Shown in pieces: positions 17,601 to 37,700 of a DNA stretch of 64,000 nt; the first letter of the stretch is position 1, and every line of letters begins with the position of its first letter. A model generated the notes under the pieces. That model did not search any database. It was not told where the DNA came from and saw nothing but the letters and a program-made list of their open reading frames with translations. Origin of the DNA: a virus (lineage: Duplodnaviria; Caudoviricetes); IMG/VR virus record IMGVR_UViG_3300049781_000059, positions 1-64,000 of that record. The stretch is one strand, 5' to 3'. The translations under genes and the position numbers were made by a program.

Positions 17601-20600
17601 CTACATTCCGTAGGCCAGCGCCATGCGGTGCATGACACGGCGGGCCGTCGCGTCGGGGTCGCCGACCGCCGCCATGTTGAAGACGGGGGCGATCGTCACT
17701 GTCTGCGCGCCACTGCCGCTCCCAGAGGGTTCGGCGCCGATGATGCCCATCAGCCCGGACTGGGCGACGAGCTGCCGCGCCCGCTTGGGTTTCGTCAACG
17801 GGATGATCACCTCGGGTCCGGCCTCGCCGACGAGTGCGTGCGTGGGCCCCCACACCATGCCGCCCTCCGCGAACGGCAAGTACTTTTTCACGGCGTCGGG
17901 CAGCCCGCTCTTGATCGAGGACATGATCCGCCCGCCGATGTCCCCCAGAGCACCGATGATCTTCCCCGGGAGTCCCGTGAAGAGGCCGACAATCCCGGAG
18001 ATCAGACTGGACACGGCGCTCTGCACCCCTCCGACCGCGCTTGTGAAAGCACTGGAGATCTTCGATCCGACCGACGACAGCGCCGATCCGATCTTGCCGG
18101 GCAGTCCCGAGAAGAACGACACGACGGACGAGCCGAAGCTGCGCGCCGCGCCGAGCGCCTGCGTACCGGCCGACGTGACAACCGAGGTGATCTTTCCGGG
18201 CAGCGCCGAAATCGCGGACGCAGCCCGCCCGGGGAGCTGCTGGAAGAACGACGCCGCCGACGACAGGAACCCCGAGATTGCGGAGGTCGCCGTCGAGAAC
18301 GCCGAACTGAGGACGCCGAGCAGCGCCGCGCCCAGCGACTGCAGGGCCGACACGATCCGGCCGGGCAGCTCGGTGAAGATGAACACCACGGCCGCGATCG
18401 CCGTCAGCAACGCGATCGCGAGTCCGGCGATGGCTTGGACGAACAGATCGACGAGCAGGCCGGGCAGTGCCTGGAGGACGGCGAGGATCTGCCCTGGCAA
18501 GCCCGTGAAGAACGTGATCACCGTCGTGAACGCCGTCGTGATCCACGTGCCGATCGTCGTCACGAGCGTGGAGAAGAACACCGAGATCGTCGACCCCAGG
18601 CTCGACAGCGCCCCGACGATCATCGTCGGCAGGTTCGTGATGAACGTGACCGCGCCGGTCAGGAAGCCGAGCAGCCCGGACAGGACCCCCACCACGGCGG
18701 AGATCACCGGCACGACGGCCTGGATGATCAGCCACGACTCGAAGGCGATCGCCGCCTGGAGCAGCGGCGCGACGATCGAGAGGATCTGCCCGACGAGCGG
18801 CGCCAGGCTCGCCACGAACTCGGCGATCGGCGGGACCAGCGGCAGGATCGCGTCGACCAGCGCCAGGAACACCTGGATCAGCGACGGCAGGATCGGCAGC
18901 AGCGCGCCGATGATCTGGTTGATCAGCGGCAGGAACGCGTTGACGACCTGGATCGCCGCGTCCGCGAGCGCCGTCAGCAGCGGCGCCAGCCCGGTGATCA
19001 CGGACGCGAGCGCCCCACCGAGCGCGGCAGCGAGCGGCAGCAGAGCTTGAGCCACCCGCGCGAAGGCGTCCGCGAGGGGCGGCAGGACCGGCATCAGCGC
19101 GCCGACCAGGGCGGCGATGATCGGCTGGAACAGTGTGACCAGGTTTTGCAGGACCGGCGCGAGGACCGTCGCCAGCGACGCAACGAGCTGGCCGACGAGC
19201 GGCAGGATCGGCGCCAGCGCGGTGATCACTCCGCCGATCGCCTCACCGACCGGGCCCAAGCTGGGGCCGATGACGGCGAAAGCGTCGGCGAGGCCCTGCG
19301 CGACCGCGGACAGGCTCGGGGCGATCGCGGCCAGCGCCGGGCCCAGGGCGTTGACGACGCCGACGATCGCCGGGCCGATCGTCGTGAAGATCGGCATGAG
19401 GGCCGGGGCGATCGCGCCGACCTGCTGCACAAGCGCGGACAGGATCGGCCCGAGCTGCTGCGCGATCGTCCCGACCGTGCGGAAGATGTTGCCGATCGCG
19501 TCCTGGCCGGCGGCGGAGTTGACGAACTCGGCGAACTGGCCGGTGATCCGCTGCAGGTTCGCGAGGAGCCCGCCGCCGGACGCGTTCGCGGCCTGGAAGA
19601 CGCCGGAGAGGATCTGCCCGACGTTCGACGCGATCGCGCCGAGTTGCCGGAACACATCGAGCGCCCCGCGGACCTCCTCGACGGCCTGCCCGGACGCGGC
19701 GAGCGTCGACAGCCAGGTTCCGAACTCGGCGCCGATCTGGGCGATGCTCGCGCCGACCTGCGGGCCGAACGCCTCCAGGACGGCGGCGGCGATGTCGAGG
19801 AGACCGGCGGCGACCGGCACGATCGCCGCCTGCAACCCGGAGGCGGCCTGCGTCGTACCCTGAATGATCGTCCGCAGCGGCACGAGTGCCTGCTGTGACG
19901 CGGCGAACTTGAGGCCCTCGCTGGCTGCCTTGCCGAACTCGGCGGACAGCGCCGCCAGTTCCGTGCGCAGCGGTAGCAGGTTTCGCAGCGCCCCTTCGAC
20001 CTGCCCGGCGAATTGGGCAAAGAACGACTGCTGGATCGCCTGCTGAACGGCCTGGAGTTCGGGCGCCAGCTCCCGCACCGCGCGGACTGCGGTCTGCGCG
20101 GCCGGGGCGAGCTTGTCGAGCGCCTCCTGGAACTCCTCGGCGCTGCCCGTCAACGCCGCCGACAGAGCGTCGGATACGCCGAGGACGGCGAGCCGCAGCG
20201 TGTTGATGGCGACCTGCGCTCCGGCGACGGCAGCGGGCAGCGCGGCGACGATGCCGGCGGCGGGGGCCAGCGCAGCGACGAGCCCGCCGACCGCGGAGGC
20301 GGCGCTCGCCGCGGCGATCCCCACGGCGCCCAGTACGAGAAGCTGCTGCAGCGCCCCGGCGACACGGCCGGCGATGCCGCCGAGGCCGCCCAGCGCACGC
20401 GTCAGCCGGTCCGAGTCGACATCGACGTCCGCCCGGACCGTGACATCCGGCGGCCGGTAGCCGCGGATGCGCCGGTCGAGGTCGTCGAGGTCCGGGACAA
20501 CACGGATCGAAACCTCTTCGCCGGCGAGCGCCGCGCGGATCCGGTCGACGAAGCCGGTCAGGTCCGGGGCGACCGGCAGGTTGATCGAGCCGAGGCCGCG

Positions 20601-20849
20601 GAGCCCGTCGAGGACTTGGGCGTCGAACCGGGACAGGTCCGGGTCGACACGGACGGACACGGCGGCGGCGTCGAGGCCGCGTTGAATGTTCCGGCGGATC
20701 TGAGTGCCTGCGTCACGCGTCGCACGGTCCAGGGCGCGTTTGATGCGGAGGCCGACGTCACGGGCGTCAGCGACCGCATCACTGTCGTCGAGCGTGATCG
20801 TGATGCGCGCGGAGCCGTAGTCCTCGCTGTCACCGGCTGGGGTGGTCAC
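17601..20849 (-). CDS. tape measure protein
   Basis: 1082 aa Ala/Leu-rich helical repeats; C-terminal LPFAEGGMVWGPTHALVGEAGPEVIIPL. Confidence 0.95.
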   Translation of the reverse strand: MTTPAGDSEDYGSARITITLDDSDAVADARDVGLRIKRALDRATRDAGTQIRRNIQRGLDAAAVSVRVDPDLSRFDAQVLDGLRGLGSINLPVAPDLTGFVDRIRAALAGEEVSIRVVPDLDDLDRRIRGYRPPDVTVRADVDVDSDRLTRALGGLGGIAGRVAGALQQLLVLGAVGIAAASAASAVGGLVAALAPAAGIVAALPAAVAGAQVAINTLRLAVLGVSDALSAALTGSAEEFQEALDKLAPAAQTAVRAVRELAPELQAVQQAIQQSFFAQFAGQVEGALRNLLPLRTELAALSAEFGKAASEGLKFAASQQALVPLRTIIQGTTQAASGLQAAIVPVAAGLLDIAAAVLEAFGPQVGASIAQIGAEFGTWLSTLAASGQAVEEVRGALDVFRQLGAIASNVGQILSGVFQAANASGGGLLANLQRITGQFAEFVNSAAGQDAIGNIFRTVGTIAQQLGPILSALVQQVGAIAPALMPIFTTIGPAIVGVVNALGPALAAIAPSLSAVAQGLADAFAVIGPSLGPVGEAIGGVITALAPILPLVGQLVASLATVLAPVLQNLVTLFQPIIAALVGALMPVLPPLADAFARVAQALLPLAAALGGALASVITGLAPLLTALADAAIQVVNAFLPLINQIIGALLPILPSLIQVFLALVDAILPLVPPIAEFVASLAPLVGQILSIVAPLLQAAIAFESWLIIQAVVPVISAVVGVLSGLLGFLTGAVTFITNLPTMIVGALSSLGSTISVFFSTLVTTIGTWITTAFTTVITFFTGLPGQILAVLQALPGLLVDLFVQAIAGLAIALLTAIAAVVFIFTELPGRIVSALQSLGAALLGVLSSAFSTATSAISGFLSSAASFFQQLPGRAASAISALPGKITSVVTSAGTQALGAARSFGSSVVSFFSGLPGKIGSALSSVGSKISSAFTSAVGGVQSAVSSLISGIVGLFTGLPGKIIGALGDIGGRIMSSIKSGLPDAVKKYLPFAEGGMVWGPTHALVGEAGPEVIIPLTKPKRARQLVAQSGLMGIIGAEPSGSGSGAQTVTIAPVFNMAAVGDPDATARRVMHRMALAYGM

Positions 20850-22756: not shown

Positions 22757-23566
22757 TTACGGCCAGATCTGCGAGCGGGGCCGCCGGTAGTCGGGGCTGA
22801 AGACGCGGCTGGGCGAGGTGAGCCGGTGGGGGTTCGCTGACATGAGCCATAGATCTACGCCGGGCAGGCCGGTGCGCATCTCGGTGTAGAGCAGCGTCGG
22901 GTCTGTGAACTCCTGGTCGACGCCTTGGCGGGAGAGGCGGGTGACGTTCGCGGGCATTTTGCAGCCGCAGGCGCCGCCGCCGTTGCACCCTTTGAGGAGG
23001 TGGCAGACGAGTTCGCTGTAGGCGGCGATCGCGGCGTCGTCCAACGGGAGCCCGATGCGGTAGTGCACGCCGAATGTGCCCGGCTCGCCCAAGGGAGCGT
23101 CGAGTTGCTGGCAGTCGGGCCAGCAGCCGCCGTCGGTACGCACCAGCAGCCCCGGTGAGTCGACGCGGTACGCGGTCTCGGGCAGGGTGACGCCGTCGAC
23201 TTCGACGCCGAGGATGTCGTACACAGGGCCTTCGAGACGGACCTCGCACAGCTCGGTGCAGGAGCAGTCCGAGGCGCAGCCGCACACGGATGCGTTACGC
23301 CACTGCCCGTCGGAGCCGATATAGGGAATCCACGGTGACCCGTTCGACCAGGACGAGGCGAGCGGCAGGCCGTCGAGGCATCGGCGGCGGCAGGGCCGCA
23401 CCGTGTACGGGCAGGAGGGGCCCCAGCGCCGGCCGGACAGGTTGAACAGGATCGTGGTGGCGACCCGCTTCCAGCGTTCCAGGACCGCGTCGTCGGCACC
23501 CTCGGCCGCGGGGCAACACGAAATATCGAGTGGCCAGGGCTCACAGAGGGGCCGTTGTAGGGCCAC
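22757..23566 (-). CDS. head-to-tail adaptor
   Basis: ATTILFNLSGRRWG..C..TVRPC, VTRLSRQGV, TGLPGVDLWL..NP resemble cluster-B-type adaptors. Confidence 0.7.
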   Translation of the reverse strand: MALQRPLCEPWPLDISCCPAAEGADDAVLERWKRVATTILFNLSGRRWGPSCPYTVRPCRRRCLDGLPLASSWSNGSPWIPYIGSDGQWRNASVCGCASDCSCTELCEVRLEGPVYDILGVEVDGVTLPETAYRVDSPGLLVRTDGGCWPDCQQLDAPLGEPGTFGVHYRIGLPLDDAAIAAYSELVCHLLKGCNGGGACGCKMPANVTRLSRQGVDQEFTDPTLLYTEMRTGLPGVDLWLMSANPHRLTSPSRVFSPDYRRPRSQIWP

Positions 23567-23597
23567 GACGTCTCCTAACGGCGGGCGGGGCGGGGGT

Positions 23598-23640
23598 GTG
23601 CGGTGGCCGGACGGGGAACGGGTCCGTGCGGCCACCGCAC
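23598..23640 (-). terminator. stem-loop after major tail gene
   Basis: GTGCGGTGGCCG / CGGCCACCGCAC 12-bp stem. Confidence 0.65.
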
Positions 23641-23667: not shown

Positions 23668-24354
23668 TTACGGCACCGGGACGGGCACCGCCGCGTAGTC
23701 ACACGACGGGACCGGCGGCGGTGTGGTCGTGACGAATGTGCGGCGGTGGCAGGAGCTGTCGAGCGGAGTGAGCATCGGGCCCGGGGTGCCGGCGGCGTCG
23801 GTCGGCTGGACGTTGTAGGGGCCGACGCCCCAGGCACCTCCGGCGCGCGTCGAGCCGGTGATCTGAAGTGTCACCGCCTCCGATCCGATCTCCAGGTCGC
23901 CGAGGAGACCGTTCGTCACCCACGGCAGCAGGAAGTAGATCCACTGTCCTTCGGCGCCTTCGACGCACTCTTCGCCGAGGACTTCCGCCCACAGTTCCAG
24001 GGCGAAGCCGGTGTCGCAGCGGACGCTGCAGGTGTCGAAGCCGATGGGGTTGCCGTCGTAGCCGAGGACGACGGGGTTGCCGGTGAGGATTTCGATCAGC
24101 TCCGGGGACACGCTGTAGACGTTCATCTCCAGGTCGAAGCCTCGGAAGGTGGGGCATCCGCGCTTGAAGCCGCAGACCCTCCCATTCGCCGCCTTGTACT
24201 CGATGTCTTCGCCTTCGTCGCTGTTGTTGTTCATGGCGAGGCTGGCGAAGCAGTCGAAGACGAAGCCGTTGTCGACGCCGGGGATGGGGTTGCCGCACTG
24301 GTCGAGCCGGGTGACGCGCATGACGTCGGCGTTGGCTATCAGTGGACAGGACAT
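23668..24354 (-). CDS. major tail protein
   Basis: MRVTRLDQCG, KAANGRVC, GFALELWA, YFLLPWV resemble cluster-B-type tail tube proteins; own leader motif. Confidence 0.8.
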   Translation of the reverse strand: MSCPLIANADVMRVTRLDQCGNPIPGVDNGFVFDCFASLAMNNNSDEGEDIEYKAANGRVCGFKRGCPTFRGFDLEMNVYSVSPELIEILTGNPVVLGYDGNPIGFDTCSVRCDTGFALELWAEVLGEECVEGAEGQWIYFLLPWVTNGLLGDLEIGSEAVTLQITGSTRAGGAWGVGPYNVQPTDAAGTPGPMLTPLDSSCHRRTFVTTTPPPVPSCDYAAVPVPVP

Positions 24355-24511: not shown

Positions 24512-25636
24512 TCAGTCGGAGATCTTGTGGAGGGACAGTTCGTACTGGTACGGCTGGCTGACGCCGATGTTGTTCGGGATGCCGTTGTAGACCTGGTCGC
24601 CGGTGACGACGTCGCCGACGTTCAGGAGGATCCGCTTCGTGATCGTGTTCGACGTGGCCGTGGGGCCCATCACGAGTGTGGTGGTGCCGTTGATGTCCTG
24701 AGCGTCGTAACCCCACACCATCAGCTCCTGGACCTTGACCGGGGTCCCGTTGACGAGCATCCGGTGATCTGCGTCGATGCTGGCGCTGTGCGTGCCCGCG
24801 GCGGCTCCCGTGGTTTGTACGCCGATGCTGCCGGTCTGCTGGATCTCGTACACGCCGGCTTCCGTTGCGGTGAACGTCTGGACTCCGTCGGCCCACTGGG
24901 GTGAGAGGCGGGCGCCCACGTTGAAGGTGTCCGCCGGTCCTTCCGTCACGTCGATGTCGACGCTGCGGCCGGTGCCTACCGGCGCCGGGCCGCTCCCGGC
25001 CACTGGCGCCACCACAGTCGTGTCGGGCTCAGCGATCGAGTGGACCACGTATGGGTCGCTGGCCGTGCCGGTACCTGTCACGGTCGCTGTAGTGCCGTCG
25101 CCCTGAACGATGGTCGCCGTGCCGCCGCCGGAGCTGGTCGCGTATAGGCGGCCGTCGCTGCCGACGGTCAGCGCGTTACCCGCGTCCGCGGACGGGGCGA
25201 CGAGGAGGCCTGTGCCGGCCGCTTCCAGGCCGTTCGGTTCCGGCGCCACGATGACGTCCGCCGTGATCGGGCTGCCGCTCGTGCCGTCACCCGACAGGTT
25301 CACGGTTGGCGTGTCGTTGGCGACGATCGGTGCCACGCCCGCGGGGACACTGAGGACCGCAGCGGTGATCGGGTTGGCGGGCGTACCGTCGCCGGACAGG
25401 TCGACCGTCGGCGTGTCCTGCGTCGCTACCGCCGTCAGACCGCTCCCGCCGCCGCCCGTACCCGGAATCCATGCGGTCCCGTTCCAGACGAGCGTGTTAC
25501 CCGCTGCCGGCGGGGTCGTGCCAGTGTCGACGTCCCCCAGCGCGTTGATCGAGCAGCCGCCGAGCTGTGTACATGCGAACGTGCCGCCGCTGGCCGTACC
25601 CGAGCCACCGCAGCAACCCCAAGCTTTGGCCCCCAT
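24512..25636 (-). CDS. fibre-like structural protein
   Basis: LGDVD...GNTLVWNGTAWIPG fibre motif; repeated DTPTVxLSGDGT..PITA; C-terminal beta domain. Confidence 0.7.
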   Translation of the reverse strand: MGAKAWGCCGGSGTASGGTFACTQLGGCSINALGDVDTGTTPPAAGNTLVWNGTAWIPGTGGGGSGLTAVATQDTPTVDLSGDGTPANPITAAVLSVPAGVAPIVANDTPTVNLSGDGTSGSPITADVIVAPEPNGLEAAGTGLLVAPSADAGNALTVGSDGRLYATSSGGGTATIVQGDGTTATVTGTGTASDPYVVHSIAEPDTTVVAPVAGSGPAPVGTGRSVDIDVTEGPADTFNVGARLSPQWADGVQTFTATEAGVYEIQQTGSIGVQTTGAAAGTHSASIDADHRMLVNGTPVKVQELMVWGYDAQDINGTTTLVMGPTATSNTITKRILLNVGDVVTGDQVYNGIPNNIGVSQPYQYELSLHKISD

Positions 25637-25662
25637 GGGGCTACCTCCTTTGTCGTGGTCTT

Positions 25663-25698
25663 GGGTAGCGGCGCGGCCGACGAGCCGCGCCGCTACCC
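25663..25698 (-). terminator. stem-loop after giant modular gene
   Basis: GGGTAGCGGCGCGGC / GCCGCGCCGCTACCC perfect 15-bp stem. Confidence 0.7.
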
Positions 25699-25706
25699 AC
25701 AGCCCG

Positions 25707-28700
25707 TTACGCGCTGGCGCAGCTGCGCACGGTGCCGAGGGGCGTGTAGTCGTTGCCTTGCAGGTCGGTGTCCCTGGTCACGACCGTCCCGTCCAGGTCC
25801 TGCACCCAGCGGATGAACGTGCCCGCGTCATCGCAGAGGGTGATGGGCTGTTCCTGCTTGCACGGGATGATCCGGGTCCCGTCGGGCAACGTGTCGTGCC
25901 GGTTCTCGAACTGGTCCAGGTAGTAGACGTCCCCGGAGCAGCAGACCATCTTCGTCCAGCTGGCCTGCCCTGGGACGGCGTAGGTGAGGATGAAGTGCGC
26001 GATCACGCCCGCACCGTTGCTGGCGTCCGGCTGCGAGGCGTTCTCATTTACCTCGAAGTACAGGAAGTTCTCACCAGCGACGGCGCCCGTGAGGGGGACT
26101 GGGGCCTGCTTGTACGGTGTCGCCGTCGAGTAGAAGCCGCCGCCGTTCACCCAATCACCGTCGTTGATGCGGTAACGCACCGGCACTTGGTCGGCGTTCA
26201 ACGTGGTGATTTCCATCTTGACCGTGCTCAGGTCGGCGGCGGCCGGGATCGTGAACGACGACCGGGCCCACCAGTTCGATGGGTTCGCGATCTGCGGGCC
26301 CTCGCCCGGCAGGCCCGTGCTGACGACCATGGCACCCGCGTGGGGGGCTATCCATCCGGCCGTGGGCGAGTTGGGTTGGCCGTTGTTGCGGGTCGCAGAG
26401 TCCGCGGTCTGCCAGGCAGTGCCGGGGTACTTCTTGTTGTACATCGGGTACCAGGTGGTGACCGCAGACGGGTCGCTGCCTCCGCCCGAGGGTGCCCACG
26501 TGAAGGTGTCCGCCTCCGTCCCGTCGTCCCGCTTTTCCGGGTTGGACACGAACTGGACTTCGCCGGTCGCGCGCGGCGTGACGCAGATCTGTACCGGTTC
26601 GCAGCACGGCTCGGGTTGGCACAGTACGGCCGCGCCGCGTGGGGTGTAGCTGGTGGCCCCGTCCATCAGGGTGTCGATGACGGCCGTGACCGACCCGTCA
26701 CACCCGTGGCAGATGCGCCGCATGAATTGGCCCGGGGGCGTCATCTCGATGGCACCCAGCCACAGAGTGCGCTGTACCCCGCAGACGTCGTGCGTGGCCG
26801 TACCAAGCCAGTCCACGATGACCGATGTGGTGAGGCTGGTGGTGCGCAGCCGTGCGGCCCGCAGCCGGGTCGGGTTGGCCATGTCCGCGCAGATGTTCGC
26901 CTGGTCCTGCTGCGCCGTGACACACAACAGGCCGGTCACTGGGTCGAACGTGTATCCGCTGGGCAGCTCGACCGGTTCCACCGTGGTCGGAAGCTGGACG
27001 CAGTTGCCGGTGGCGCCCGGCGTGTCGTCGTAGGCCAGGTGGATGCTGAACTCGATCGTCACCGGGACGGACGCGCCGATGGTGTACGCAGTACCCACCG
27101 TGTTCGGCGCAGGCTCGCCGTTGCCCCACCACGCGCCGTCAGCGTTGGCGATCTTGCTCTGCACCGCCCCCGCCGGACCTGCCGCGTCCCCGCGCACGGT
27201 GTAGACCACGCCGTTGCTGAGTGTCTGTGTGGACGCGTTCAGGATACGGATGGTGGCCGGATCGTCCCCACCGTCGTCGCACAGGACGATCGTTTCGCAG
27301 TCGCTGCACGACGACGTGTCGGGGCACAGGCCGACCACGCCCGACGGGGTGTAGACGGCCGAGCCGTCGAGGGTGGTGTCCCGGACGGACGTCACCTCAC
27401 CGTCACAGTCCCGGCAGATGGTCCGCAGGAAAGGCACCGACGGCACCGTGCTGATCGAACCGGTCCACGATGTGCGGAACGAGCCCTGGAAGGCGTAACG
27501 GCCGCCGAGCCACGTTGTGGTGAACTCGGACACCGGCCCCAGAGTCCGGAAGCGCGGCGAGTGGGCCAGATCGGGGCTCGCCATGAGAGCCGTCTGTTGT
27601 GCCACCGTGAGGCCGTGGTCTGGGCCCACGGTGACGCGGGACGTGGCGGCGTCGAACGTCCAGCCGGGCGGCAGGAAGACCGGCGTGACGTTCGGCGGAA
27701 GCTGCATCGTGTTGGCGGTCGGACTGGACGCCTGGTAGATGAAGAACACACTGAACTCGGTGACGGTGGGACGAGCCAACGTGAACCGATACGGAAGAAC
27801 CTGTGTCAGCGGGAACGACTCGGGGTTGCCCCACCAGGCACCGTCGGTGTTGCTGATTTCCGACGTGACGGGCGAGCCGAACGAGGACGTAGCGCCACTG
27901 GTCGATGTCCATCCGATGCCGTTGGACATGGTGCCGCTGCTGACGTTCGCGCCGTAGATCGTGGCCTCGTCGTCGGACTGGCCGTCGCACAGGATCTGCG
28001 ACTCGCAGTCGCCGCAGTCTCTTGCCGTCGGGCAGTTGCCGACCGTGCCGAGTACCTGGTACGCCGTGACACCGTCCGGCAGGTAGTCGAGCGTGGTGTC
28101 CGGCAGTCCGTCGCAGCCGTAGGTGATGGCGCGCACGAACGGAACGACTGTGATCAGCGTGGACGTCACCGTCTCAGGACGCACGAGAAGGTCACGCGTG
28201 GTCCCGGCATTCGTTGTCCAGTCGGAGACGCGAATGGTGACCGTGCCGGACGACGGCGCCGTGAACGCGAGCGGCGCCCGGAATCCCAGCGGCCCACTCG
28301 CAGTACTGCCGTTGGACAGGTTCTCGATACGGCTGGCGATGACGGCACTACCGTCAAGGATCTCCAGCAGGTACATGGCCTCAGGCAGCGGCGTGACGCC
28401 CCCGCCGTTACCGTTCCACCCGGCCTGATAGTTGAACTCATACGGCTGGCCCGGCACCACACTGGACACGGTTCCCGTGGCCACACCGTTGACCGGCGTC
28501 TGCCCCTCGGAGAAGACGAGCGTGCCGCTGCTGTTGTAGACGCTGCCCGTCAGCGTGAAGCCGCCGCCCGGTGTGGGGATCGGTGGCTGCTGCGGCGGGA
28601 CCGTGTCGCACAGTTCGATCAGTTCCGTGTCGCCGCAGTCGGGCTCGGCCGGGCAGTCGATCGGGTTGGCCGGGATGTAGGGCTGCGTGAAGTCCCCGTC

Positions 28701-29756
28701 GAGCCACGTTCCGAGGAGCGTCGGCGGGGTGTCGCTCGTGGTGCTCACGGCCCACAGCTCGATGTACCGGTTGATGACCGTACTGTCGCCGTTGACGTCG
28801 TCGCAGCCACAGCGTTCGACGACCTGCCGGGCACTCGCCGTGTCGCCAGTCGGGCCGCAGGCGCCGATCTCGCCTTGCACGGCGTAGATGGTGGTGCCGT
28901 CGAGGGTGGTGTCCGTGACGGCGGCAGTGCCGGTGCAGGTGCGGCAGATCGTCCGGAGGAACGGCACGGCCTGTGTCTCGTCGGTCCCGGGCACGCCCGG
29001 CCCGAGGAGGGAGACGTCGTCAACGAGGGCGTCAATGAAGTCGCCGCCCACTTGATCGCTGAAACGGACCGTCATCTCGGTGTCAGTGGCGACGATCGGC
29101 GCGGGGCCGACCACGCCGTCGGCCGGCCACTGCGGGCCGCCGCTCGTTTCCACGGGGGCGACGGTCTCGGAGTAGAGGACCGCACCCGACCCGTCGACCA
29201 CCTCCACGAGGACGCTTTGGGGAGTGGTCCCGCCCGTGCCCCAGATACCGATGCGGGCCGACAGGGTGTAGGTCAGGCCGGGGGTGACGGTCACCGTCTG
29301 CTCGGCCGACCCTGCCGGGTTGTTGTCCGCTGACAGGTCGAGGAACCCAACCGACCCGTCCGGGCTGCTGGACGGGACGTATCGCGCGCCCCCGGTCAGC
29401 GTCCACCCCGAGGTGTCCGCCGCGAAGTTGCCGTTGGTGATGCGCTCGGGGGTCTCACCCGGCGTAGAGGCCGTGGTGACGTCGCACAGGAGCAGCGTCT
29501 CGCACGTGCACGAGTCGGGCGGCGGGCAGGCCTGCAGGGTGCCTTGCGGCACGTAGACGGCTCCCGTTGCGGGGTCGACGGTGCGCGTGCCGATACGGTC
29601 GCCGCTGCTGGCGTCGTAGACCGGCTCCACGAGCACGGTGGCGGCCACGGTGCCGTCGGCGAGGACGTCGCACAGAACGACCGGTTCGACGTCAACGCGC
29701 GCACTGGCCGCCGGATTACTCAACAGGACTGGCTGGCCGCAGCCGCATCCGCTCAC
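25707..29756 (-). CDS. 1349-aa modular Cys-scaffold protein with inserted carbohydrate-binding-like passenger domains
   Basis: GTG start overlapping upstream stop; repeated ExxxLCD...PFLRxICxxCDG...DTxLDG..Y...G.C units; NGNF...GW...DDVSL CBM-like insert. Confidence 0.85.
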   Translation of the reverse strand: MSGCGCGQPVLLSNPAASARVDVEPVVLCDVLADGTVAATVLVEPVYDASSGDRIGTRTVDPATGAVYVPQGTLQACPPPDSCTCETLLLCDVTTASTPGETPERITNGNFAADTSGWTLTGGARYVPSSSPDGSVGFLDLSADNNPAGSAEQTVTVTPGLTYTLSARIGIWGTGGTTPQSVLVEVVDGSGAVLYSETVAPVETSGGPQWPADGVVGPAPIVATDTEMTVRFSDQVGGDFIDALVDDVSLLGPGVPGTDETQAVPFLRTICRTCTGTAAVTDTTLDGTTIYAVQGEIGACGPTGDTASARQVVERCGCDDVNGDSTVINRYIELWAVSTTSDTPPTLLGTWLDGDFTQPYIPANPIDCPAEPDCGDTELIELCDTVPPQQPPIPTPGGGFTLTGSVYNSSGTLVFSEGQTPVNGVATGTVSSVVPGQPYEFNYQAGWNGNGGGVTPLPEAMYLLEILDGSAVIASRIENLSNGSTASGPLGFRAPLAFTAPSSGTVTIRVSDWTTNAGTTRDLLVRPETVTSTLITVVPFVRAITYGCDGLPDTTLDYLPDGVTAYQVLGTVGNCPTARDCGDCESQILCDGQSDDEATIYGANVSSGTMSNGIGWTSTSGATSSFGSPVTSEISNTDGAWWGNPESFPLTQVLPYRFTLARPTVTEFSVFFIYQASSPTANTMQLPPNVTPVFLPPGWTFDAATSRVTVGPDHGLTVAQQTALMASPDLAHSPRFRTLGPVSEFTTTWLGGRYAFQGSFRTSWTGSISTVPSVPFLRTICRDCDGEVTSVRDTTLDGSAVYTPSGVVGLCPDTSSCSDCETIVLCDDGGDDPATIRILNASTQTLSNGVVYTVRGDAAGPAGAVQSKIANADGAWWGNGEPAPNTVGTAYTIGASVPVTIEFSIHLAYDDTPGATGNCVQLPTTVEPVELPSGYTFDPVTGLLCVTAQQDQANICADMANPTRLRAARLRTTSLTTSVIVDWLGTATHDVCGVQRTLWLGAIEMTPPGQFMRRICHGCDGSVTAVIDTLMDGATSYTPRGAAVLCQPEPCCEPVQICVTPRATGEVQFVSNPEKRDDGTEADTFTWAPSGGGSDPSAVTTWYPMYNKKYPGTAWQTADSATRNNGQPNSPTAGWIAPHAGAMVVSTGLPGEGPQIANPSNWWARSSFTIPAAADLSTVKMEITTLNADQVPVRYRINDGDWVNGGGFYSTATPYKQAPVPLTGAVAGENFLYFEVNENASQPDASNGAGVIAHFILTYAVPGQASWTKMVCCSGDVYYLDQFENRHDTLPDGTRIIPCKQEQPITLCDDAGTFIRWVQDLDGTVVTRDTDLQGNDYTPLGTVRSCASA

Positions 29757-31198
29757 AGTCGTACTCCTTGCGTGTAATTGACGATGACGGTGCCGTCGGT
29801 GGCGGTGATGGTCAGGGGGCCGGTGAGGGAGGCGTCGCCGTCGTGGACGAGGCTCCACGTCGCCGTCTCGCCGTCTCGGAGGGTGCTGGTTCCGTCCGCT
29901 GTCGTGATCGCCCCGGTGCCGTCGTGCGCAATGGCGGTGACGGAGTGGATCAAAGGGGTGGAGGCGGCGTCCCAGGACTGACCCGGGGCGAGTTCCCGGC
30001 GGCGGACCTGCGCACCGAATGCCGCGGGCGCCCCCTGGTCGTCGTCGGCGTCGCAGTCCACCGGGTTCAGAGGGGTGTACGGGCCGCTGAGATCGCACAG
30101 GTAGGTGCCGAGGGTGCTGACCGTTCCCTGGCAGTCGACGCCGAGCAGCTCGATGTACCAGGTGTCGGCGATGCCGTCCCCGTCGGTGTCGTCGCAGCGG
30201 TCGGCCTGGATGATGTTCTGGGCGCCGCAGTCGCCGTCGCAGAAGCCGACGGTGCCAGCCACCGGGTACGTGCTGCCGTCTGGCGTGTAGTCGGTGTGCC
30301 CGGTGATCTGGCCGTTCTCGTCGCGGGCGTAGTCGCGGAGGAAGCGGCGCACGCTGCCGTCGGCGAGCGTGTCACACAGCACGACAAGGTCCTTCTCCGG
30401 CTGTGTGACACCGGCCGGGCAGGTCGTGATCTCGCCTTGTGGTGTGTACGTCTGGCCGGTAGCGGCGTTGATGAGGCGCACCCCGGATACGCTGCCGTCC
30501 GAGTTGTACGTGTACTCGATCAGGACGAGCCCGAATACGGTGCCGCTGGCAGGGTCGATGTCGCAGAACGTGCCGCCAGTCGACACGCTGCGCGGTTCAC
30601 CGCACGCGACCGTGCCCACTGGCGGCTGCCCGGCCGAGAAGACACCGCTGACCAGGTTCACCCAGCCTTCTTGCCGAACGATGCCGTCGCAGTCGCGGGT
30701 GACGATGGCCGCGATGGGGGTGCCGTCGGCGAGGCACAGGCCGAGCGTCGCCAGCGGCGCCCGCTGATCGGCGCAGTCGGAGCCGCCGTCGCAGGAGCGG
30801 ACGTCGCCGACGACGAGGTGCGGTGTCTCCCCGTCGACTTCCACGTCGACGTAGGCGGCGGTGCCGTCGGACAGGAACGTGAACTTCCGCAGGAACGGGC
30901 GGCCGGAGTCGTCGCAGAGCATCTCGGTGTGGCACTGCATCGTGCCCTGCTCGCAGTCGACCGGTGCGACCGGCGTGTACGGCGTCGACGGGTCGTCCTG
31001 GTAGATGACGACGAGTTGGCTCGTGCCGTCCTGCTTGATGCACCACAGTTCGCTGTAGGTGGTGTCGGGCTGGCCGTCGCCGTTGGTGTCGTCGCAGCGC
31101 AGGACACACGTGGTGGTGACGCACGTCGGCGGGCACTCGCATTCCCCGCCGCCGCCTCCCCCGGCGCCGCAGGTGCAGCCGCTGTAGGAGATGGCCAT
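29753..31198 (-). CDS. 481-aa Cys-scaffold repeat protein (no passengers)
   Basis: Same LCD/FLR/Y..G..C and RCDDxxGD...ELW...PYxPxxPxDC units as the neighbour. Confidence 0.85.
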   Translation of the reverse strand: MAISYSGCTCGAGGGGGGECECPPTCVTTTCVLRCDDTNGDGQPDTTYSELWCIKQDGTSQLVVIYQDDPSTPYTPVAPVDCEQGTMQCHTEMLCDDSGRPFLRKFTFLSDGTAAYVDVEVDGETPHLVVGDVRSCDGGSDCADQRAPLATLGLCLADGTPIAAIVTRDCDGIVRQEGWVNLVSGVFSAGQPPVGTVACGEPRSVSTGGTFCDIDPASGTVFGLVLIEYTYNSDGSVSGVRLINAATGQTYTPQGEITTCPAGVTQPEKDLVVLCDTLADGSVRRFLRDYARDENGQITGHTDYTPDGSTYPVAGTVGFCDGDCGAQNIIQADRCDDTDGDGIADTWYIELLGVDCQGTVSTLGTYLCDLSGPYTPLNPVDCDADDDQGAPAAFGAQVRRRELAPGQSWDAASTPLIHSVTAIAHDGTGAITTADGTSTLRDGETATWSLVHDGDASLTGPLTITATDGTVIVNYTQGVRL

Positions 31199-31596
31199 CA
31201 GCTATCCCCCTTGGGGTGGGCTTGGCGGCGGTGGGTGTTCCGGCCGCGTTCGGTGGGGAAGGTGCGCGGGCACAGATCGCAGGCGTAGACGCCGCTGCCG
31301 TCGTCGTCGGGGGTGGGTGCGTCCTCGAGCGGCGCGAAGTCCGGGGCGGGAGCGTTCGGGGTGAACGCCTCTTCGGTGGCCACGCCCAGCAGGTCCCGGC
31401 CCTCGTCGTCCTGGGGTGACACGTACCGGTGCCCGTCGACGAGCGACCCGATCAGCAGCTCTTCCGGCATGTGCGTGAACATGCCTGGGGGGACGGCGAA
31501 CTCGCTGTGGGAGCACGTCTCGACCTGCGGGCTCTGGGCGGTCGCCCACCGGGCGAATGCCGCCCGCCGGTCAGGCGCGGGCCGCACTTTGATCAT
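31198..31596 (-). CDS. hypothetical protein with C-terminal C2H2 zinc finger
   Basis: YACDLCPRTFPTERGRNTHRRQAH. Confidence 0.7.
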   Translation of the reverse strand: MIKVRPAPDRRAAFARWATAQSPQVETCSHSEFAVPPGMFTHMPEELLIGSLVDGHRYVSPQDDEGRDLLGVATEEAFTPNAPAPDFAPLEDAPTPDDDGSGVYACDLCPRTFPTERGRNTHRRQAHPKGDS

Positions 31597-31598
31597 CG

Positions 31599-32435
31599 TC
31601 AGCAGCACGTCGAGATCCTCACTGCCGCCGCCTCACAGCACGCCACCTCGATCACAGAAGTGCGCTCGGCGAGGACGTACCGGTCATTCAGGCGGGTATC
31701 GATACTCCCGGCCTCGGTGGGCGGGTTGATGTCGAGCGGCCCGCGGCGCACCCGGACCGGGCCCGTCACGTACAGCCACGCCTCCCCGTCGGCGGGCGCC
31801 ATGCACGTGGCGCCGCCCACGTTCGTGGCGTACCCGGCGCCGAAGACGACGCCGTTGCCCATGAGGGTCTCCGGGCATTGGGTGTCGCGGGTGCGGGTGG
31901 CGATGTTGCAGCAGCCGAGCAGTGCCGCCGCCCCGGCAGGAATGTGCAGGATGCCTTCGCCGCCGTACTGCTCGGCCAGCCAGCCTTCGAGCGCGGCGAC
32001 GCCCTGCGCGGCCGGGAGCGCCCCCGAGCCGGGGGTGAGGTCGTTGCCTTCGGCCATCGTGCACAGGGCGTTCAGCATGAACCAGGATTCGAGGGCGCGC
32101 TGCTCGCCCATGCGGAGGGTTTCCGCAGCATGCTCTACGGCCTCGTCGTAGGTCATGCCGAACGTGGAGCACGTCGACCCGGCATACACGGTCACCGGGT
32201 CGAACTCGCACACCCCGGGCCGGTCGAAGATCTTCGATGCCGGGTTCGGCACGGTCGGGGGCGGACAGTCCCGCTCCCACGTGTGCGTTTCAGCGCACGA
32301 CAGCGGCACGAACTGGGTGCCGTTCAGTTCGTGCATGTCGGTAACGTCTACGACCTCTACGCACCCGCCGAGGAGGCCGTAGGGGCTGGGATTGCCACGG
32401 ATGGGGTCTACGGTTTTGCGCATCCCTGCCGCCAT
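31599..32435 (-). CDS. second capsid-like protein (putative major capsid pentamer protein)
   Basis: Follows MCP; PYGLLG, F.PVTVYAG..C, GEQRALE, V.ALEGWL, GN.VVFGAGY, AERT pattern recalled from cluster-B pentamer proteins. Confidence 0.65.
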   Translation of the reverse strand: MAAGMRKTVDPIRGNPSPYGLLGGCVEVVDVTDMHELNGTQFVPLSCAETHTWERDCPPPTVPNPASKIFDRPGVCEFDPVTVYAGSTCSTFGMTYDEAVEHAAETLRMGEQRALESWFMLNALCTMAEGNDLTPGSGALPAAQGVAALEGWLAEQYGGEGILHIPAGAAALLGCCNIATRTRDTQCPETLMGNGVVFGAGYATNVGGATCMAPADGEAWLYVTGPVRVRRGPLDINPPTEAGSIDTRLNDRYVLAERTSVIEVACCEAAAVRISTCC

Positions 32436-32460
32436 CTGCCTCACGCCCTCTCAAGTCCGG

Positions 32461-32506: not shown

Positions 32507-34153
32507 TCAGGCGACGGGGCAGGCGGCCGTGGCGCGCGGTCCGACAGAGCCGTCAGCGCAGACCGGGATGGTGATGGCTCGCGCCTGCGGCCCGCGGTAG
32601 ATGAGGGCGTTGCAGGACTCGAAGAACAGGGCGGTCATGTCGTTGGTGCGGAGCAGGGTGCTGTCGTGGATGACCCCGAGGTTGATCTCCGGGCCGCGGC
32701 CCATCTGGAACGCGCCGGCCGGGTAGAGCAGGGCCTGCATGGTGGCTGGCCAGGCGGTGGCGGGGGTGGTGCCGCCGATGTTGGCGGGGACGGCCGGGGG
32801 GAGGCCCTTGACCCACTGGACGCGGACGCCGAGGTCGGCGAACGCGTTCTCGACGCAGTTCTGGTTGAGGGTGCAGACGTCGACGCCGTCGCGGCGGGCG
32901 ATGTCGGCGAGGAACATGTTCTTCGCCCAGTACGGCAGGACCAGCTCGAGGCCGATCCGCTCGCAGAGGCTGAACCGTTCGGTCATGTCGGCGATCTGCA
33001 GGGCGAGCGCCCCGTACACGGCGGAGAACGACGCGAACGACGGTGCGGTGGTCACTGCGGTGGCCTTGGTGAGGGCCTGCTGGTACATGGCGGCCTTGAG
33101 ACGCATCTCGTAGGCGACCATGGCACGCCGGATGTAGAAGGCGTTCAGCTCGGGGAAGAACCGCTGGGAGAGGATGCCGGCCTGGATGCAGGCGCCGTAG
33201 GCGGTGCAGCGGACTTCGACCGGGTCCACACAGGGGATCTTGAAGCAGGGCTTCGTCGGGTCGCCGTCGACCGCGCTGATGTCGTCGGCTTCGGTCCAGA
33301 TCCACGACATCGCGGTGACGTCCAGCTCGGGCGTCATGTAGTAGCGCAGGCCACCACGCGACAGGTTGAGCTCGGGCAGGTCCCACAGGTTGTCGGGACA
33401 CGAGATCTCGGTGAAGTCGTACACCGTCTCGGAGGGGGCGCACCAGCCGCCGGATGCGACGAGGTCGCCGCCCTTGAGGCGCCGCTGGTCGGCGGCCTTG
33501 AGGACCTTGGTGGTGCCCTCTTCCGGGGAGCCCGCATCGTTGATGATCAGGTCCTGCGGGAACGGCAGCTGGTAGGACGCGGCGAGGGCCTTGCCGCCGT
33601 TCGCGACCAGGTTCGCGACCTTGGTGACGGACTCGGTCAGCCCCTCCATGTTCAGCGGGGCGCCCAGGGTGGCGCCGGGGACCTCGGCGGAGGCGACGAT
33701 CGTGACGGCCGGGGTGCCGGAGTTCGGCATCGGCTGCCGCGGCTGCCGCTCACGCACGGTCGCCAGGCTGATGATCGGGCGGCGCACGACAGCAGAGGAC
33801 GCGGCGACTTCCTCGACGGCCGGCTCTTCCGCTTCGGCGGCCGGCTCCTCCTCGTCGACGGCCACGGTCTCGTCGCTGTCGCTGTCGGTGGCGGTGTCTT
33901 CGCCGAGTACCTGCACGGCGAGTTCGTCGAGTTCGGCGACGGCGGCCTGTGCGGCTTCGACGCGGGTGGCCTGCTCGCTGCGCAGGGCTTCGATGCCGGT
34001 GGCCAGCTCGCGCAGGGCGGGCAGGTCGTCGGTGGTGAGGTTCGGGTCGGCACGCCGGGCCTGGAATGCCTCGGTCGCCTGGGTGATGTGAGCGTCGAGG
34101 TCCTCGGCGCTCAGGCTGCTGAAGTCTGTGGGGAGCTCGTAAGGCTCGGCCAT
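32507..34153 (-). CDS. major capsid (hexamer) protein with N-terminal scaffold-like domain
   Basis: LVASGGWCAPSETVYDF, LPELNLSRGGL, KPCFKIPC, RFFPEL as in cluster-B MCPs; acidic coiled-coil N-terminus. Confidence 0.9.
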   Translation of the reverse strand: MAEPYELPTDFSSLSAEDLDAHITQATEAFQARRADPNLTTDDLPALRELATGIEALRSEQATRVEAAQAAVAELDELAVQVLGEDTATDSDSDETVAVDEEEPAAEAEEPAVEEVAASSAVVRRPIISLATVRERQPRQPMPNSGTPAVTIVASAEVPGATLGAPLNMEGLTESVTKVANLVANGGKALAASYQLPFPQDLIINDAGSPEEGTTKVLKAADQRRLKGGDLVASGGWCAPSETVYDFTEISCPDNLWDLPELNLSRGGLRYYMTPELDVTAMSWIWTEADDISAVDGDPTKPCFKIPCVDPVEVRCTAYGACIQAGILSQRFFPELNAFYIRRAMVAYEMRLKAAMYQQALTKATAVTTAPSFASFSAVYGALALQIADMTERFSLCERIGLELVLPYWAKNMFLADIARRDGVDVCTLNQNCVENAFADLGVRVQWVKGLPPAVPANIGGTTPATAWPATMQALLYPAGAFQMGRGPEINLGVIHDSTLLRTNDMTALFFESCNALIYRGPQARAITIPVCADGSVGPRATAACPVA

Positions 34154-34730: not shown

Positions 34731-37700
34731 TCAGGCTCCTTCCTGCTGCGGTGCAGCACTGGCGGTCAGGGCGAGGCTGGTCGGTTCGACCAGTGCTGAG
34801 AGGGCTTCGAGTTCGGCGCGTACCTGGGCGCGTTCGGTCTGCCGCTGTGCGAAGGCGTCAGCGAACCGGTCAAGGAACGCGGGGCTGATCAACAGGTCGG
34901 AGGCAGCCTGCACGACATCGGTGACGGGAGCGGTGTCAGGTGCGCGCCCGTGCGAGGGTTCGGGTTCACCGGCCTGTTCGGGGACCGTCTCGTGCTCGGT
35001 GTCGAGTGTCGCAGCGGCAGCGGTGAGCGCGAGGTTGGATCGCTCGACAACCGCGGTCGCTGCCAGATGCGCGGCGGCGGCAAGCCGGTACTCCGGATTG
35101 AGCGGCGAAGAGTGACCAGGCACCGGCACGGACAGCACCGCCCGCAACTGCCAGCGGCCGTCGCCTGCCTGCGTCATGTGATAGCTGGGCTGGCAGGCAC
35201 GGAACACAGACAGGTCCCAGGACGACAACCAGGGTGCTGCGGCGCCGGAGAACCACATGCCGCCGCTGTTCATGCCGACGGTGACGATCCCTGCAACGGT
35301 CCGGGTGTCGTCGAACTGGCAGCTGGCGGTTTCGCATTCGGCGCCGTCGCGGTGGTGGCCGACGTTCATGGTGATCGCGCCGACTGCGATCTCCGAGCCG
35401 TCGTCGAGGGCGAACCGGGCGCGCAGGAAGTGGCTGGTGTCGATCTGCCCCAGCTTGTCGATCATCACCTTGCGGCCGTGGACGGCATGCGGCACACCGG
35501 CCTGAGCGACCCAGCCGTAGATTCGTCCGTCCTTGTAGTGGACGCCGCCACTGCCGGACGGGAGTTCCTCCTCGGTCGGTTCGGTGAACCAGTCGGCGGG
35601 CATCGGATCCGACTGCTGCATGACCTGCCAGGCGGAGGCTTCCAGCTCACTCATGTCGTCGCCGTCGCTGCTGTCGTCGCCCCACGGGGGCTGGATGCTC
35701 GAGTCGTCGAACGCCGTGGCCAGGCTTTCGTACAGGTCATCGACGCGTTCGCGGATCTGCTCCTGCTCGTCCTCGGGAATGTCGACGCCGCCACGCGCCC
35801 CGGACAGGGCACCGGCGACGGCGTACACGCCACTCGCGACAACCTCCAGCCGCTGGCCGTCACCAGTGTCGAAGACGTCGGCGAAGCCCAGCTTGTACGC
35901 GGCGAGAGTCGCTGGATCGGCGTCCGGATCGCGGTAGAGGAACGCCCGGCCGAGCCCGTCGGCATCGACCGTTCCGTCGTCGGCGGTGGCCCAGTCGAGG
36001 ACGCGGGAGGCTGCGGCGTCGCCGTCCCACTCGACGTCACGGTCGGCATGCACCGGCAGCTCAAGGTCACCGGAGGCCGCCGCTACCATCTCCCCCTCCG
36101 GGATCGACGACGGAGCGGTGTACAGGCCACGGCCGATACGCAGAACCCGGCCCTCACGGACGGCGGTGCGCAGGTGCCGTTTCGTCGTCGACACGGTCAG
36201 GCCGAGGGCTTCGGCGACCTCGCGGGCGCCGACCGGTACCGGTGATGTGCAGACGTGTCCGATGACCCGCTCAAGGTCGTCGCCCGCAGCCGCGGCCACT
36301 TCCGTGACCGGCTCTTCCTCGTTGGCCGGCTGCTCGGCGGTGGGGTCGGCGTCGAGGACGATGCGGGCCTTGTCGTAGGCAGGCATCGCGACGAGGGTGG
36401 CGCCGCGGACACGGGCGCGGGTGATGCGGATCAGGTAGTCGCCAGCGTGCTCGGTGTGGACGACGGTGCCCGACTGAGGGTTGTCGGGGTCACCGGCCGC
36501 AGCGGTGAGCGCGCCGGGAAACAGGGTGCGGGCGGTGGTGGCGGGGATGCGTCCGCCGGGCCCGGAGATGATGGACGTTGTCCGGGTGCTGCGCTGCATT
36601 GCGGCGCCGGAGGCGGTCCACTCGGGGGCACTGCTGGCAGTGATCATCCACGCGCCGTCGCCCAGCGACAGGACGGATGCGCGGGCATAGGAGGCTGCGG
36701 CGAGGACAAGGTCGTCGTCCTCGCCCTCGACTTCTTCGCCGCTCGTGTTGTCGCGGAGTTCGATGTCGACGTCGTCGAGGTCGACGGACACGCCGAGCGG
36801 GGCGCCCTGCCGGAGCAGCATCGCCGCCTCAGCACCTGCACGCTGCATCAGGTACAGGACACCGGAGCCGGTGAGGCGCGGGCCGTCGACGCTCATCTCC
36901 TGGATGGCGCCAGCGAGTTCCGCACCGTCGTGGCCGGCTCCCATCTCGTCGGCGTACTGCAGGGGCCAGGGCCCGCCCTCCCAGTAGAGGGAGCCTTCGG
37001 CGAAGACTCTGCCGTCACCGGTCTGCTGCCCGATGAATGCGAGGGCGGCGTCACCGGGGGTGGACCACGTGAGGATGGGTGGCGGGCCGTCCGCCGCGGC
37101 GGCGGTGGTGTGGGATTCGCGCACAGAGCTTCCCTCTCCTGCTGGGCTGGTGGCGTCTCTCTGCTCGGTGCCGGCTCGTGCGAGGGCGAGGACGCATCGG
37201 CAGTTGACGGTGAGAGCGGGCGGGGCGGTGGGGTCGCCGGGGTATGCCATGTCGGTGCCGTCGACGGTGAAGGGGTCGTCGAGGAGTTGCAGTTGGGCGT
37301 CGGTGTCGGCGTGCGCGTCGCGGACACGCTGGTCGTGGCGGGTGATCCACTGTTTGACGAGGGGCCGGTCCGGGCCGGACAGGTCGCGGGCGGCGGCGAG
37401 CGTGGCCGCGTTCCAGGCGCGGGTGGCTTCGGTGCGGGCGATGCGTTCCTCGCGGGTCTCCCCCAGCTGAGTGCCGTCGGCGGCGAACAGGGCCCGCAGT
37501 CGGGCGCGGAGGGCTTCGGTGTCTTCGCCTGCATCCAGGCCCTCAACCAGGGCGGCAACAGCGGCTTCGGTGAGCCGGTCACCGACGGCGCGCAGCAGGT
37601 GCTCGGTCTGCTCGGCGTAGTCGCCCAGGGCTGGCGGGAGGGTGTCGTCGTCGTACCGGCTAGGCAGATCATCCCAGCCGTCGGGCAGCTCGACGTCGAC

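Follow-up and report, generated by a model that had tools for sequence, protein, structure and literature searches.

The window analysed here is a stretch of 64,000 nucleotides (positions 1 to 64,000) of the IMG/VR virus record IMGVR_UViG_3300049781_000059, which is 74,198 bp long and was rated complete by CheckV; the G+C content of the window is about 69%. Two adjacent genes on its minus strand, gene B (481 amino acids, 29753-31198) and gene A (1349 amino acids, 25707-29756), encode proteins built from a cysteine-bounded repeat unit of about 50 amino acids (aa), and in gene A several copies of this unit are split by inserted domains. A preliminary description, made from the letters of the stretch, had pointed to this architecture and had proposed a disulfide- or metal-stapled chain displaying exchangeable glycan-binding modules. 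The common form of the unit, termed type 1, follows the pattern xLCD..PFLR..DTxLDG..Y.P.GTVGxC. A 51-position hidden Markov model (HMM) was built from 151 distinct uninterrupted units of B and its homologues, mostly from other proteins, which were extracted with the pattern xLCD(2-14 aa)FLR...C. The parts of gene B are as follows; pLDDT is the predicted local distance difference test score of AlphaFold2.

29753-31198, minus strand: gene B, 481 aa, six small cysteine-bounded beta units followed by a C-terminal jelly-roll domain
30953-31099, minus strand: type-2 unit, B aa 34-82, motif RCDDTNGDG...PYTPVAPVDC
30791-30931, minus strand: uninterrupted type-1 unit, B aa 90-136, unit HMM E 7e-15, positions 2-51
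30419-30739, minus strand: two divergent units, B aa 154-260, LCLADG...GTVAC and FCDIDP...GEITTC
30239-30391, minus strand: uninterrupted type-1 unit, B aa 270-320, the best copy in the window, HMM E 9e-23, positions 1-51
30053-30199, minus strand: second type-2 unit, B aa 334-382, motif RCDDTDGDG...PYTPLNPVDC
29756-30028, minus strand: cysteine-free C-terminal jelly-roll, B aa 391-481, pLDDT >93, present in the consensus of 60 homologues

Protein B contains 25 cysteines. It had been taken to consist almost entirely of units; six were found, but the last ~90 aa form the cysteine-free jelly-roll. Both divergent units were modelled as beta-meanders and are conserved in 60 homologues, although the HMM matched only FCDIDP...GEITTC (E 0.0095, positions 19-51), the LCLADG copy being recognised by eye. 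In the AlphaFold2 model of B (60 homologues; pLDDT 82, predicted template modelling score (pTM) 0.33), the units are predicted to lie like beads on a string, each a confident three- to four-stranded beta-meander with undefined orientation relative to the others. For the type-2 unit at aa 34-82, strands were placed at residues 26-36, 46-55, and 60-66 with pLDDT >90. Both proteins contain this second unit type (RCDD..GDG..ELW..PYxPxxPxDC), as the preliminary description had it; there are two copies in B and one in A, and it was also found in 160 of 264 relatives. It is probably a divergent form of the type-1 unit, with which it aligned in register in hhalign (probability 51%, E 1.6e-4). Its segment D-D-T-(N/D)-G-D-G-x-x-D (30953-31099, 30053-30199, and 28653-28817) is one that we take to resemble calcium-binding loops of the DxDxDG type. 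The jelly-roll is kept in most B-like proteins. Its fold resembled cupins and the Ena subunits of the disulfide-linked Bacillus endospore appendages at a generic level (Z 6.6-7.0); the likeness to Ena is suggestive only because N-terminal cysteine tags are also present in these proteins. A Foldseek search of the PDB with the whole B model returned only beta-propeller enzymes at a TM score of ~0.1, which reflect beta-meander blades and were set aside as uninformative.

Gene A comprises the parts listed below.

25707-29756, minus strand: gene A, 1349 aa, with two empty, four confirmed split, one degenerate split, and one type-2 unit
29526-29693, minus strand: empty unit 1, A aa 22-77, HMM positions 2-51, E 0.006
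28857-29507, minus strand: split unit 2, A aa 84-300 (N-half 84-92, insert 1 93-264, C-half 265-300), C-half E 6e-12
28965-29480, minus strand: insert 1, probably of a CBM_4_9-like family, inside split unit 2
28653-28817, minus strand: type-2 unit, A aa 314-368, motif RCGCDDVNGD...PYIPANPIDC
28032-28631, minus strand: split unit 3, A aa 376-575, C-half E 3e-10
28143-28604, minus strand: insert 2, A aa 385-538, of a family related to that of insert 1
27324-28016, minus strand: split unit 4, A aa 581-811, C-half E 2e-13
27432-27983, minus strand: insert 3, A aa 592-775, of the second-largest insert family (117 members)
26619-27308, minus strand: split unit 5, A aa 817-1046, C-half E 9e-8
26727-27275, minus strand: insert 4, A aa 828-1010, paralogue of insert 3
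25860-26606, minus strand: ~210-aa domain (insert 5, 25944-26579), A aa 1051-1299, with degenerate half-like flanks ICV ... DTLPDG...C
25719-25850, minus strand: empty unit 7 at the C terminus, A aa 1303-1346, HMM positions 2-51, E 6e-11

Full-length matches of the unit HMM were obtained at both ends of A only (aa 25-77 and 1304-1346), in agreement with the empty terminal copies seen earlier. Between them, four matches covered the C-half alone (HMM positions 12-51, E 1e-7 to 2e-13; aa 261-300, 536-575, 773-811, and 1009-1046), and matching N-halves of the form ..C..C.....LCD were located 154-184 aa upstream of each. When the inserts were removed in silico, the full-length match was restored with a gain of 5-7 bits; in units 3, 4, and 5 this gain exceeded that of all 20 scrambled-N-half controls, whereas in unit 2 it did not. 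Four of the five split copies originally proposed are thus borne out, and their insert coordinates agreed with ours within about 30 nt. For the fifth, the HMM scored 1 bit whether the sequence was spliced or not; because the flanking halves are too degenerate, the site of insert 5 is unconfirmed as a split unit. Units 4 and 5 are 41% identical across the whole unit, which upholds the view that inserts 3 and 4 are paralogues. Empty unit 1 is 72-80% identical in distant A-like proteins, and the position of split unit 2 holds other insert families in homologues. The protein contains 41 cysteines.

Homologues of A and B were found in Streptomyces, related actinomycete genomes, and soil metagenomes. 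Within the length ranges searched, there were 50 long homologues of A and 79 of B, all annotated as "hypothetical". At E <= 1e-3, a profile of 44 units matched 766 cluster representatives (clustering at 50% identity), and at E <= 1e-30 still 228; the proteins carry up to 15 units and reach 2,627 aa, and their named hosts include Nonomuraea, Streptosporangium, and Streptomyces. Among 264 relatives, 981 whole and 359 split (C-half-only) units were counted, with one split site. The HMM start positions were bimodal, at 1-7 or 10-15, which places all insertions at one site, the loop that joins LCD to PFLR.

As had been surmised, the unit corresponds to no described Pfam repeat: no Pfam family matched the units of A or B at E <= 0.01 or those of 22 relatives (~39,000 residues) at E <= 1e-3, and no NCBIfam model matched the unit at E <= 0.1. 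When the PDB was searched by sequence and by profile with A, B, the unit, and the split unit, only chance hits came up (E > 0.3 in the sequence-profile search), and no structure library searched held a match to the scaffold unit. The catalogued family that contains it is PHROG 18824, of unknown function, which matched B over residues 6-322 (E 4.1e-175) and A in 5 stretches (E 4.3e-64). Its members are gp17 and gp18 of phage Xkcd426, gp18 of Mischief19, and PIS_002 of PIS 136, all annotated as hypothetical. In tblastn searches of 50,697 phage genomes, A had no match and B matched three phages only, at 43-45% identity. Neither A nor B matched a fibre PHROG.

The inserts fall into four large families (125, 117, 45, and 27 members) and about 13 rare ones, and their lengths peak sharply at 150-200 aa in the 264 family members. 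By hhalign, the two CBM-like families (families 2 and 3, those of inserts 1 and 2; CBM, carbohydrate-binding module) are the only related ones (95% probability, E 2e-8), the other families being mutually unrelated. As evident from pairs of homologues, unrelated inserts occupy the same position between conserved flanks. In P0103 and P0090 the flanks are 80% and 77% identical (CPDCQTFILCD and QFMRHLCR.CDG), the inserts of ~190 and ~173 aa are unrelated, and the junctions lie exactly after LCD and before QFMR. Unrelated inserts with likewise exact junctions were seen in P0083 and P0092 (flanks 73% and 90%) and in A and P0100 (72% and 63%). B-like proteins either lack the unit at the equivalent position or have it there in empty or insert-bearing form. 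The modules are exchanged as cassettes, as the preliminary description expected of homologues, but the repertoire is narrower than it implied, with two of the four large families related to each other.

Insert 1 had been assigned to CBM4/DUF642-type beta-sandwiches. It matched Pfam CBM_4_9 (PF02018) with 20.8 bits (E 5.3e-4), short of the gathering cut-off of 25.9 bits, and the matches to DUF642 (E 0.014) and choice-of-anchor C (E 2e-4) also lay under the curated cut-offs. At the equivalent position, homologue P0084 scored 29.8 bits for CBM_4_9, above the Pfam cut-off. Thus, the family of insert 1 is probably CBM_4_9-like, although the window copy alone does not qualify. Inserts 3, 4, and 5 showed no relation to CBM_4_9, DUF642, or choice-of-anchor C. 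In the ESM Atlas, insert 5 led to unnamed clusters only, a PA14 lead being made up of 13% of the members of one cluster.

An AlphaFold2 model of A aa 570-815 (30 homologues; pLDDT 89.6, pTM 0.79) predicted one compact body in which the two halves of split unit 4 come together around the insert, in keeping with the earlier expectation that they fold as one domain. The N-half contributes the strand at model residues 14-22 and the C-half those at 206-213, 219-225, and 239-241; insert 3 (residues 25-205) is modelled as a beta-sandwich. Structural matches covered the insert only. The best was the N-domain of the adhesin Sgo0707 (Z 7.1), followed by CBM29, CBM22, CBM61, CBM62, and CBM32 (Z 5-6), and antigen I/II V-regions, the Kgp adhesin domain, and part of lambda gpJ scored in the same range. 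Foldseek searches of the PDB gave nothing at E <= 1e-3 for the split unit, the best match to unit 4 being the PrgB adhesin domain (E 6.5e-3). In the BFVD, one strong match to split unit 4 was obtained, a 941-aa protein (E 3e-12) that is most likely PIS_002 of PIS 136, as judged from protein length; a SPRY-domain protein came next. The proposed glycan binding is weakly hinted at by one CBM_4_9-like family and by the generic lectin-, CBM-, or adhesin-like sandwich predicted for insert 3 (Z 5-7).

In 138 split units, cysteine positions were counted relative to the cysteine of LCD (C0) or to the F in PFLR. Positions C-6 and F+5 were both cysteine in 66 units and neither in 68, with 4 discordant; for C-9 and F+8 the corresponding numbers were 104, 11, and 23. 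Paired cysteines obey i + j = -1, the rule of an antiparallel ladder, and the modelled strands give the matching register, residues 12+215, 15+212, and 21+206 each summing to 227. All four base cysteines were present in 51 of the 138 units, and the pairs occurred separately in 68 others (53 with C-9/F+8 only, 15 with C-6/F+5 only). Empty units lacked all four base cysteines in 220 of 304 cases and kept the invariant C0 and the terminal cysteine. In the family of inserts 3 and 4, an intra-insert pair (DPC ... A.CG) is present or absent together, and the number of cysteines was even (2, 4, 6, 8, or 10) in 287 of 328 split units.

The cysteines thus behave as staples, as had been supposed, and of the two chemistries left open the pairwise pattern favours disulfides. 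The alternative is that CxxC before LCD and CxxC after PFLR form a Cys4 zinc site clamping the base of the insert. The exact arrangement C..C.....CD ... FLR..C..C is found in 49 of 138 split units, four cysteines at the end of a beta-ladder would be compatible with zinc, and the proteins are made in the reducing cytoplasm. However, the two pairs are lost independently of each other, and the two cysteines that are left, insufficient for a Cys4 site, are nevertheless conserved. Empty units hold only the two closing cysteines, and the intra-insert pair is gained or lost as a pair while total counts stay even. Because the pairs come and go independently, disulfides are favoured over a Cys4 metal site; to judge from these patterns we consider them a good deal likelier than metal, and the zinc clamp itself rather unlikely. 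If the staples are disulfides, the proteins would therefore function outside the cell, after lysis.

The genes surrounding A and B are given below.

34731-38009, minus strand: MuF/protease fusion, virion gene block
32507-34153, minus strand: major capsid protein, phrog_777
31198-32444, minus strand: two conserved genes upstream of B, of 281 aa (phrog_779) and 136 aa (phrog_30321), chained to B and A by overlapping start and stop codons
24512-25636, minus strand: 374-aa gene downstream of A, by its position possibly part of the accessory module
23668-24354, minus strand: major tail protein, phrog_792
22757-23635, minus strand: head-tail adaptor, phrog_783
17601-20849, minus strand: tape measure protein, virion gene block

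Judged by its genes, the virus is a cluster-BG-like (Woodruffvirus-like) Streptomyces phage from soil; its closest isolated phages are those of Streptomyces cluster BG (Woodruffvirus), with a capsid identity of ~50%. A and B lie between the capsid and major tail genes, as originally described, and the minor tail and fibre genes of the window, and then the endolysin, come after the tape measure gene. The ATG of B overlaps the stop codon of the 136-aa gene as TGATG, with a Shine-Dalgarno sequence. Gene A starts with the GTG at 29756, which overlaps the TGA of B as GTGA, and AAGGAG stands 7 nt upstream. A fusion of B and A by frameshifting was considered and rejected, the GTGA overlap with its strong Shine-Dalgarno sequence amounting to ordinary translational coupling; a plus-strand open reading frame (ORF) at 25110-29333 was treated as a high-GC artefact. 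Across loci, the counterparts of the 136-aa gene (31198-31608) are ORFs of 139-498 aa from stop to stop, a spread that need not reflect a real variation in gene size.

The 374-aa protein, which matched nothing in Pfam or PHROG, combines a GCCGG motif at its N terminus and a globular part at its C terminus with a Gly-rich linker and two TPTV(D/N)LSGDGT..PITA.V repeats; the linker and repeats suggest something like a short fibre. Its relatives of 285-873 aa come after A-like genes in many loci. A cysteine motif with Gly or Pro opens three consecutive proteins, A (MSGCGCGQPV, 29730-29756), B (MAISYSGCTCGAGGGGGGECEC, 31150-31198), and the 374-aa protein (MGAKAWGCCGGSG, 25590-25636), and [VM]SGC(G)CGQ.PV is the nearly universal N terminus of A-like proteins in ~30 loci. 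The shared motif may be a docking or cross-linking tag. No N-terminal hydrophobic signal stretch was visible by eye in A or B, and a lipoprotein or secreted protein was rejected on the same visual ground, namely that no signal sequence precedes the cysteine motif.

Loci of relatives came mainly from an alignment-based viral scan, a single-sequence search giving only 2 and genome and metagenome scans only 3 and 2; gene sizes in them are stop-to-stop ORF lengths. In ~35 viral or prophage loci the order is MuF/protease, capsid, 281-aa-like, 136-aa-like, B-like (550-1,970 aa), and A-like (940-2,180 aa) genes, often with a small gene of one unit and a variable counterpart of the 374-aa gene next in line, and then the major tail, adaptor, and tape measure genes. 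A Nonomuraea prophage has the same order. The extra one-unit gene (164-320 aa) stands just downstream of the A-like gene in most relatives (loci L006, L009, L010, L012, L016-L020, L028, L030, L037, and others), and the window is without it. A phage of an unrelated lineage, in which the terminase is of another type (Terminase_6) and the tape measure protein has 2,670 aa, encodes a 1,850-aa protein with 15 units, located between the head genes and the gene for the tape measure protein (Logan contig SRR12487026, 57.5 kb, 9326-14878). The scaffold has thus also reached phages outside the BG-like lineage.

The module is dispensable, since related cluster BG phages do without it. Every relative, with or without the module, has the 281-aa-like and 136-aa-like genes next to its capsid gene. 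In YDN12, a 140-aa gene runs straight into the major tail gene and the slot is empty, as it is in the more distant Gordonia phage Bakery. In the Streptomyces phage TurkishDelight the slot (12000-14036), bounded by the small genes after the capsid gene on one side and the major tail gene on the other, holds an annotated glycosyltransferase of 678 aa. The extra size of Xkcd426 was put down to an insertion of >6 kb of orphams at ~17.8-24 kb in the cluster BG announcement (PMC5511901); this segment takes in gp17 and gp18, the two genes of Xkcd426 that carry units. That remark was the only mention found in the literature searched, in which no paper describes the unit family. The slot looks like a general cargo site of a widespread actinophage virion operon.

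From these results we consider it rather probable that A and B are optional late structural-operon proteins that form an accessory multivalent adhesin on the released virion. Each would be a flexible string of ~50-aa beta-meander units, closed by the cysteine after strand 1 (LCD) and the cysteine at the end of the unit, the socket being the hairpin loop that connects strands 1 (xLCD) and 2 (PFLR). In about one-quarter of the units a 150-200-aa beta-sandwich domain replaces this loop, and one or two extra cross-strand cysteine pairs would clamp its base. Recombination directly after LCD and directly before PFLR swaps passenger domains between phages and, by also gaining or losing whole units, would yield arrays of different lectin- or CBM-like binding domains. 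The adhesin would become oxidised outside the cell and bind polysaccharides of the host cell wall or its surroundings, and would aid adsorption rather than act as the essential receptor-binding device. Gene order favours a head-proximal optional appendage, with attachment presumably at the head or neck. The architecture itself, the exchange of cassettes at one insertion site, the paired cysteines, the gene order, and the dispensability follow from the data, and the architecture and the way it evolves can be regarded as well supported; the disulfides, the attachment to the virion and its site, and the binding of glycans are inferred.

The proteins could instead be side fibres or the main receptor-binding proteins, located on the tail or baseplate. 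This would fit the Saccharomonospora phage PIS 136, in which the tape measure gene and two genes of tail-tip size precede the gene for the 941-aa family member, most likely the protein that matches split unit 4 of gene A structurally, and it would fit the lectin-like passengers and the fibre-like repeats of the downstream 374-aa gene. We nevertheless think it unlikely. Phages of cluster BG with the same set of capsid and tail genes are viable siphoviruses without the module, the window has minor tail and fibre genes of its own after the tape measure gene, and placement between head and tail genes recurs in ~35 loci and in one unrelated lineage. Moreover, the units model well as monomeric beads, and neither model contains helices. 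It is more doubtful still that the proteins stay outside the particle, as variable-slot cargo of the late operon that supplies free multivalent lectins, released at lysis to bind debris, matrix, or neighbouring hyphae, or expressed from prophages. The empty slots of YDN12 and Bakery, the glycosyltransferase of TurkishDelight, and the many homologues within Streptomyces, Nonomuraea, and Planomonospora genomes would be in line with such a role; we find it quite improbable given the overlapping start and stop codons that chain the genes to two conserved post-capsid genes, their constant position within virion gene sets, and the 5.5 kb of a 74-kb genome spent on them. The strongly conserved N termini ahead of otherwise mosaic sequences also resemble those of particle-docking proteins.

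Several observations weigh against an accessory adhesin on the virion. The literature searched holds no proteomic or imaging evidence for any family member in a virion and no characterising paper. The PIS 136 protein, encoded among tail genes, is an exception to the head-proximal placement, and the glycosyltransferase of TurkishDelight means that the contents of the slot are not all structural. With regard to binding, insert 1 misses the CBM_4_9 cut-off of Pfam and the fold matches of the passengers do not rise above a generic level (Z 7.1 at best, Foldseek E > 1e-3). Because the sequences counted in the cysteine statistics are related, the p-values overstate their independence. A more far-reaching proposal, which we advance tentatively and with more doubt than conviction, is that actinobacterial phages evolved a natural loop-display system: a disulfide-closed ~50-aa beta-meander would be the universal socket, several unrelated binding domains would be swapped at its two invariant junctions, and the multivalent lectin arrays thus combined, borne on the head or neck, would tune adsorption to the varied glycans in the cell walls of Streptomyces and related bacteria.

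The unit family is sizeable and wholly unannotated, and its cassette exchange is clear. If virion display and glycan binding hold true, the accessory adhesin would account for a large share of the "orpham" genes in phages and prophages of Streptomyces and would give host recognition by actinophages a further, accessory layer. Its compact natural scaffold, which tolerates insertions of 150-200 aa, would also be attractive for protein engineering. Cysteines that are gained and lost in pairs make this, moreover, a clean case for inferring disulfide topology from sequence alone.

Hoc-like strings of immunoglobulin-like domains on capsids are dispensable, monomeric beads-on-a-string that provide weak multivalent adhesion. 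By analogy, A and B would share the beaded and dispensable character of these proteins. They differ in having no immunoglobulin-like Pfam match, in their smaller, disulfide-type beads, and in the nesting of binding domains within the beads, and their own attachment would be to the capsid only presumptively. PHROG 18824 is an automatic cluster that carries no description of unit, socket, or passengers, and the CBM_4_9, DUF642, and choice-of-anchor C families bear a weak likeness to insert 1 and, via profile comparison, to insert 2. The closest parallel is found in lactococcal and streptococcal siphophages, in which CBM beta-sandwich "bricks" decorate the evolved Dit, the neck passage structure, and extensions of the major tail protein (Hayes et al. 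2019, PMC6669499). There, as here, structural-operon proteins carry reusable beta-sandwich modules, which serve accessory, host-specific binding in those phages; some bricks are inserted into loops of host domains, and some are located at the neck and not at the tail tip. Neither Pfam nor PHROG linked A or B to Dit or to the neck passage structure, and the fold searches listed no such protein, which is not an exclusion. Evolved Dit is encoded after the tape measure gene, whereas A and B lie upstream of the major tail gene. The carriers of the bricks are known virion parts; the proteins described here, known from their genes alone, instead use a dedicated, cysteine-closed repeat of ~50 aa in up to 15 copies, which has one fixed socket and is not known to play another role. 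CBM decoration is thus already known from phages of Gram-positive hosts, on carriers that are ordinary virion proteins, and what is new here is a dedicated mini-scaffold with a fixed, stapled socket.

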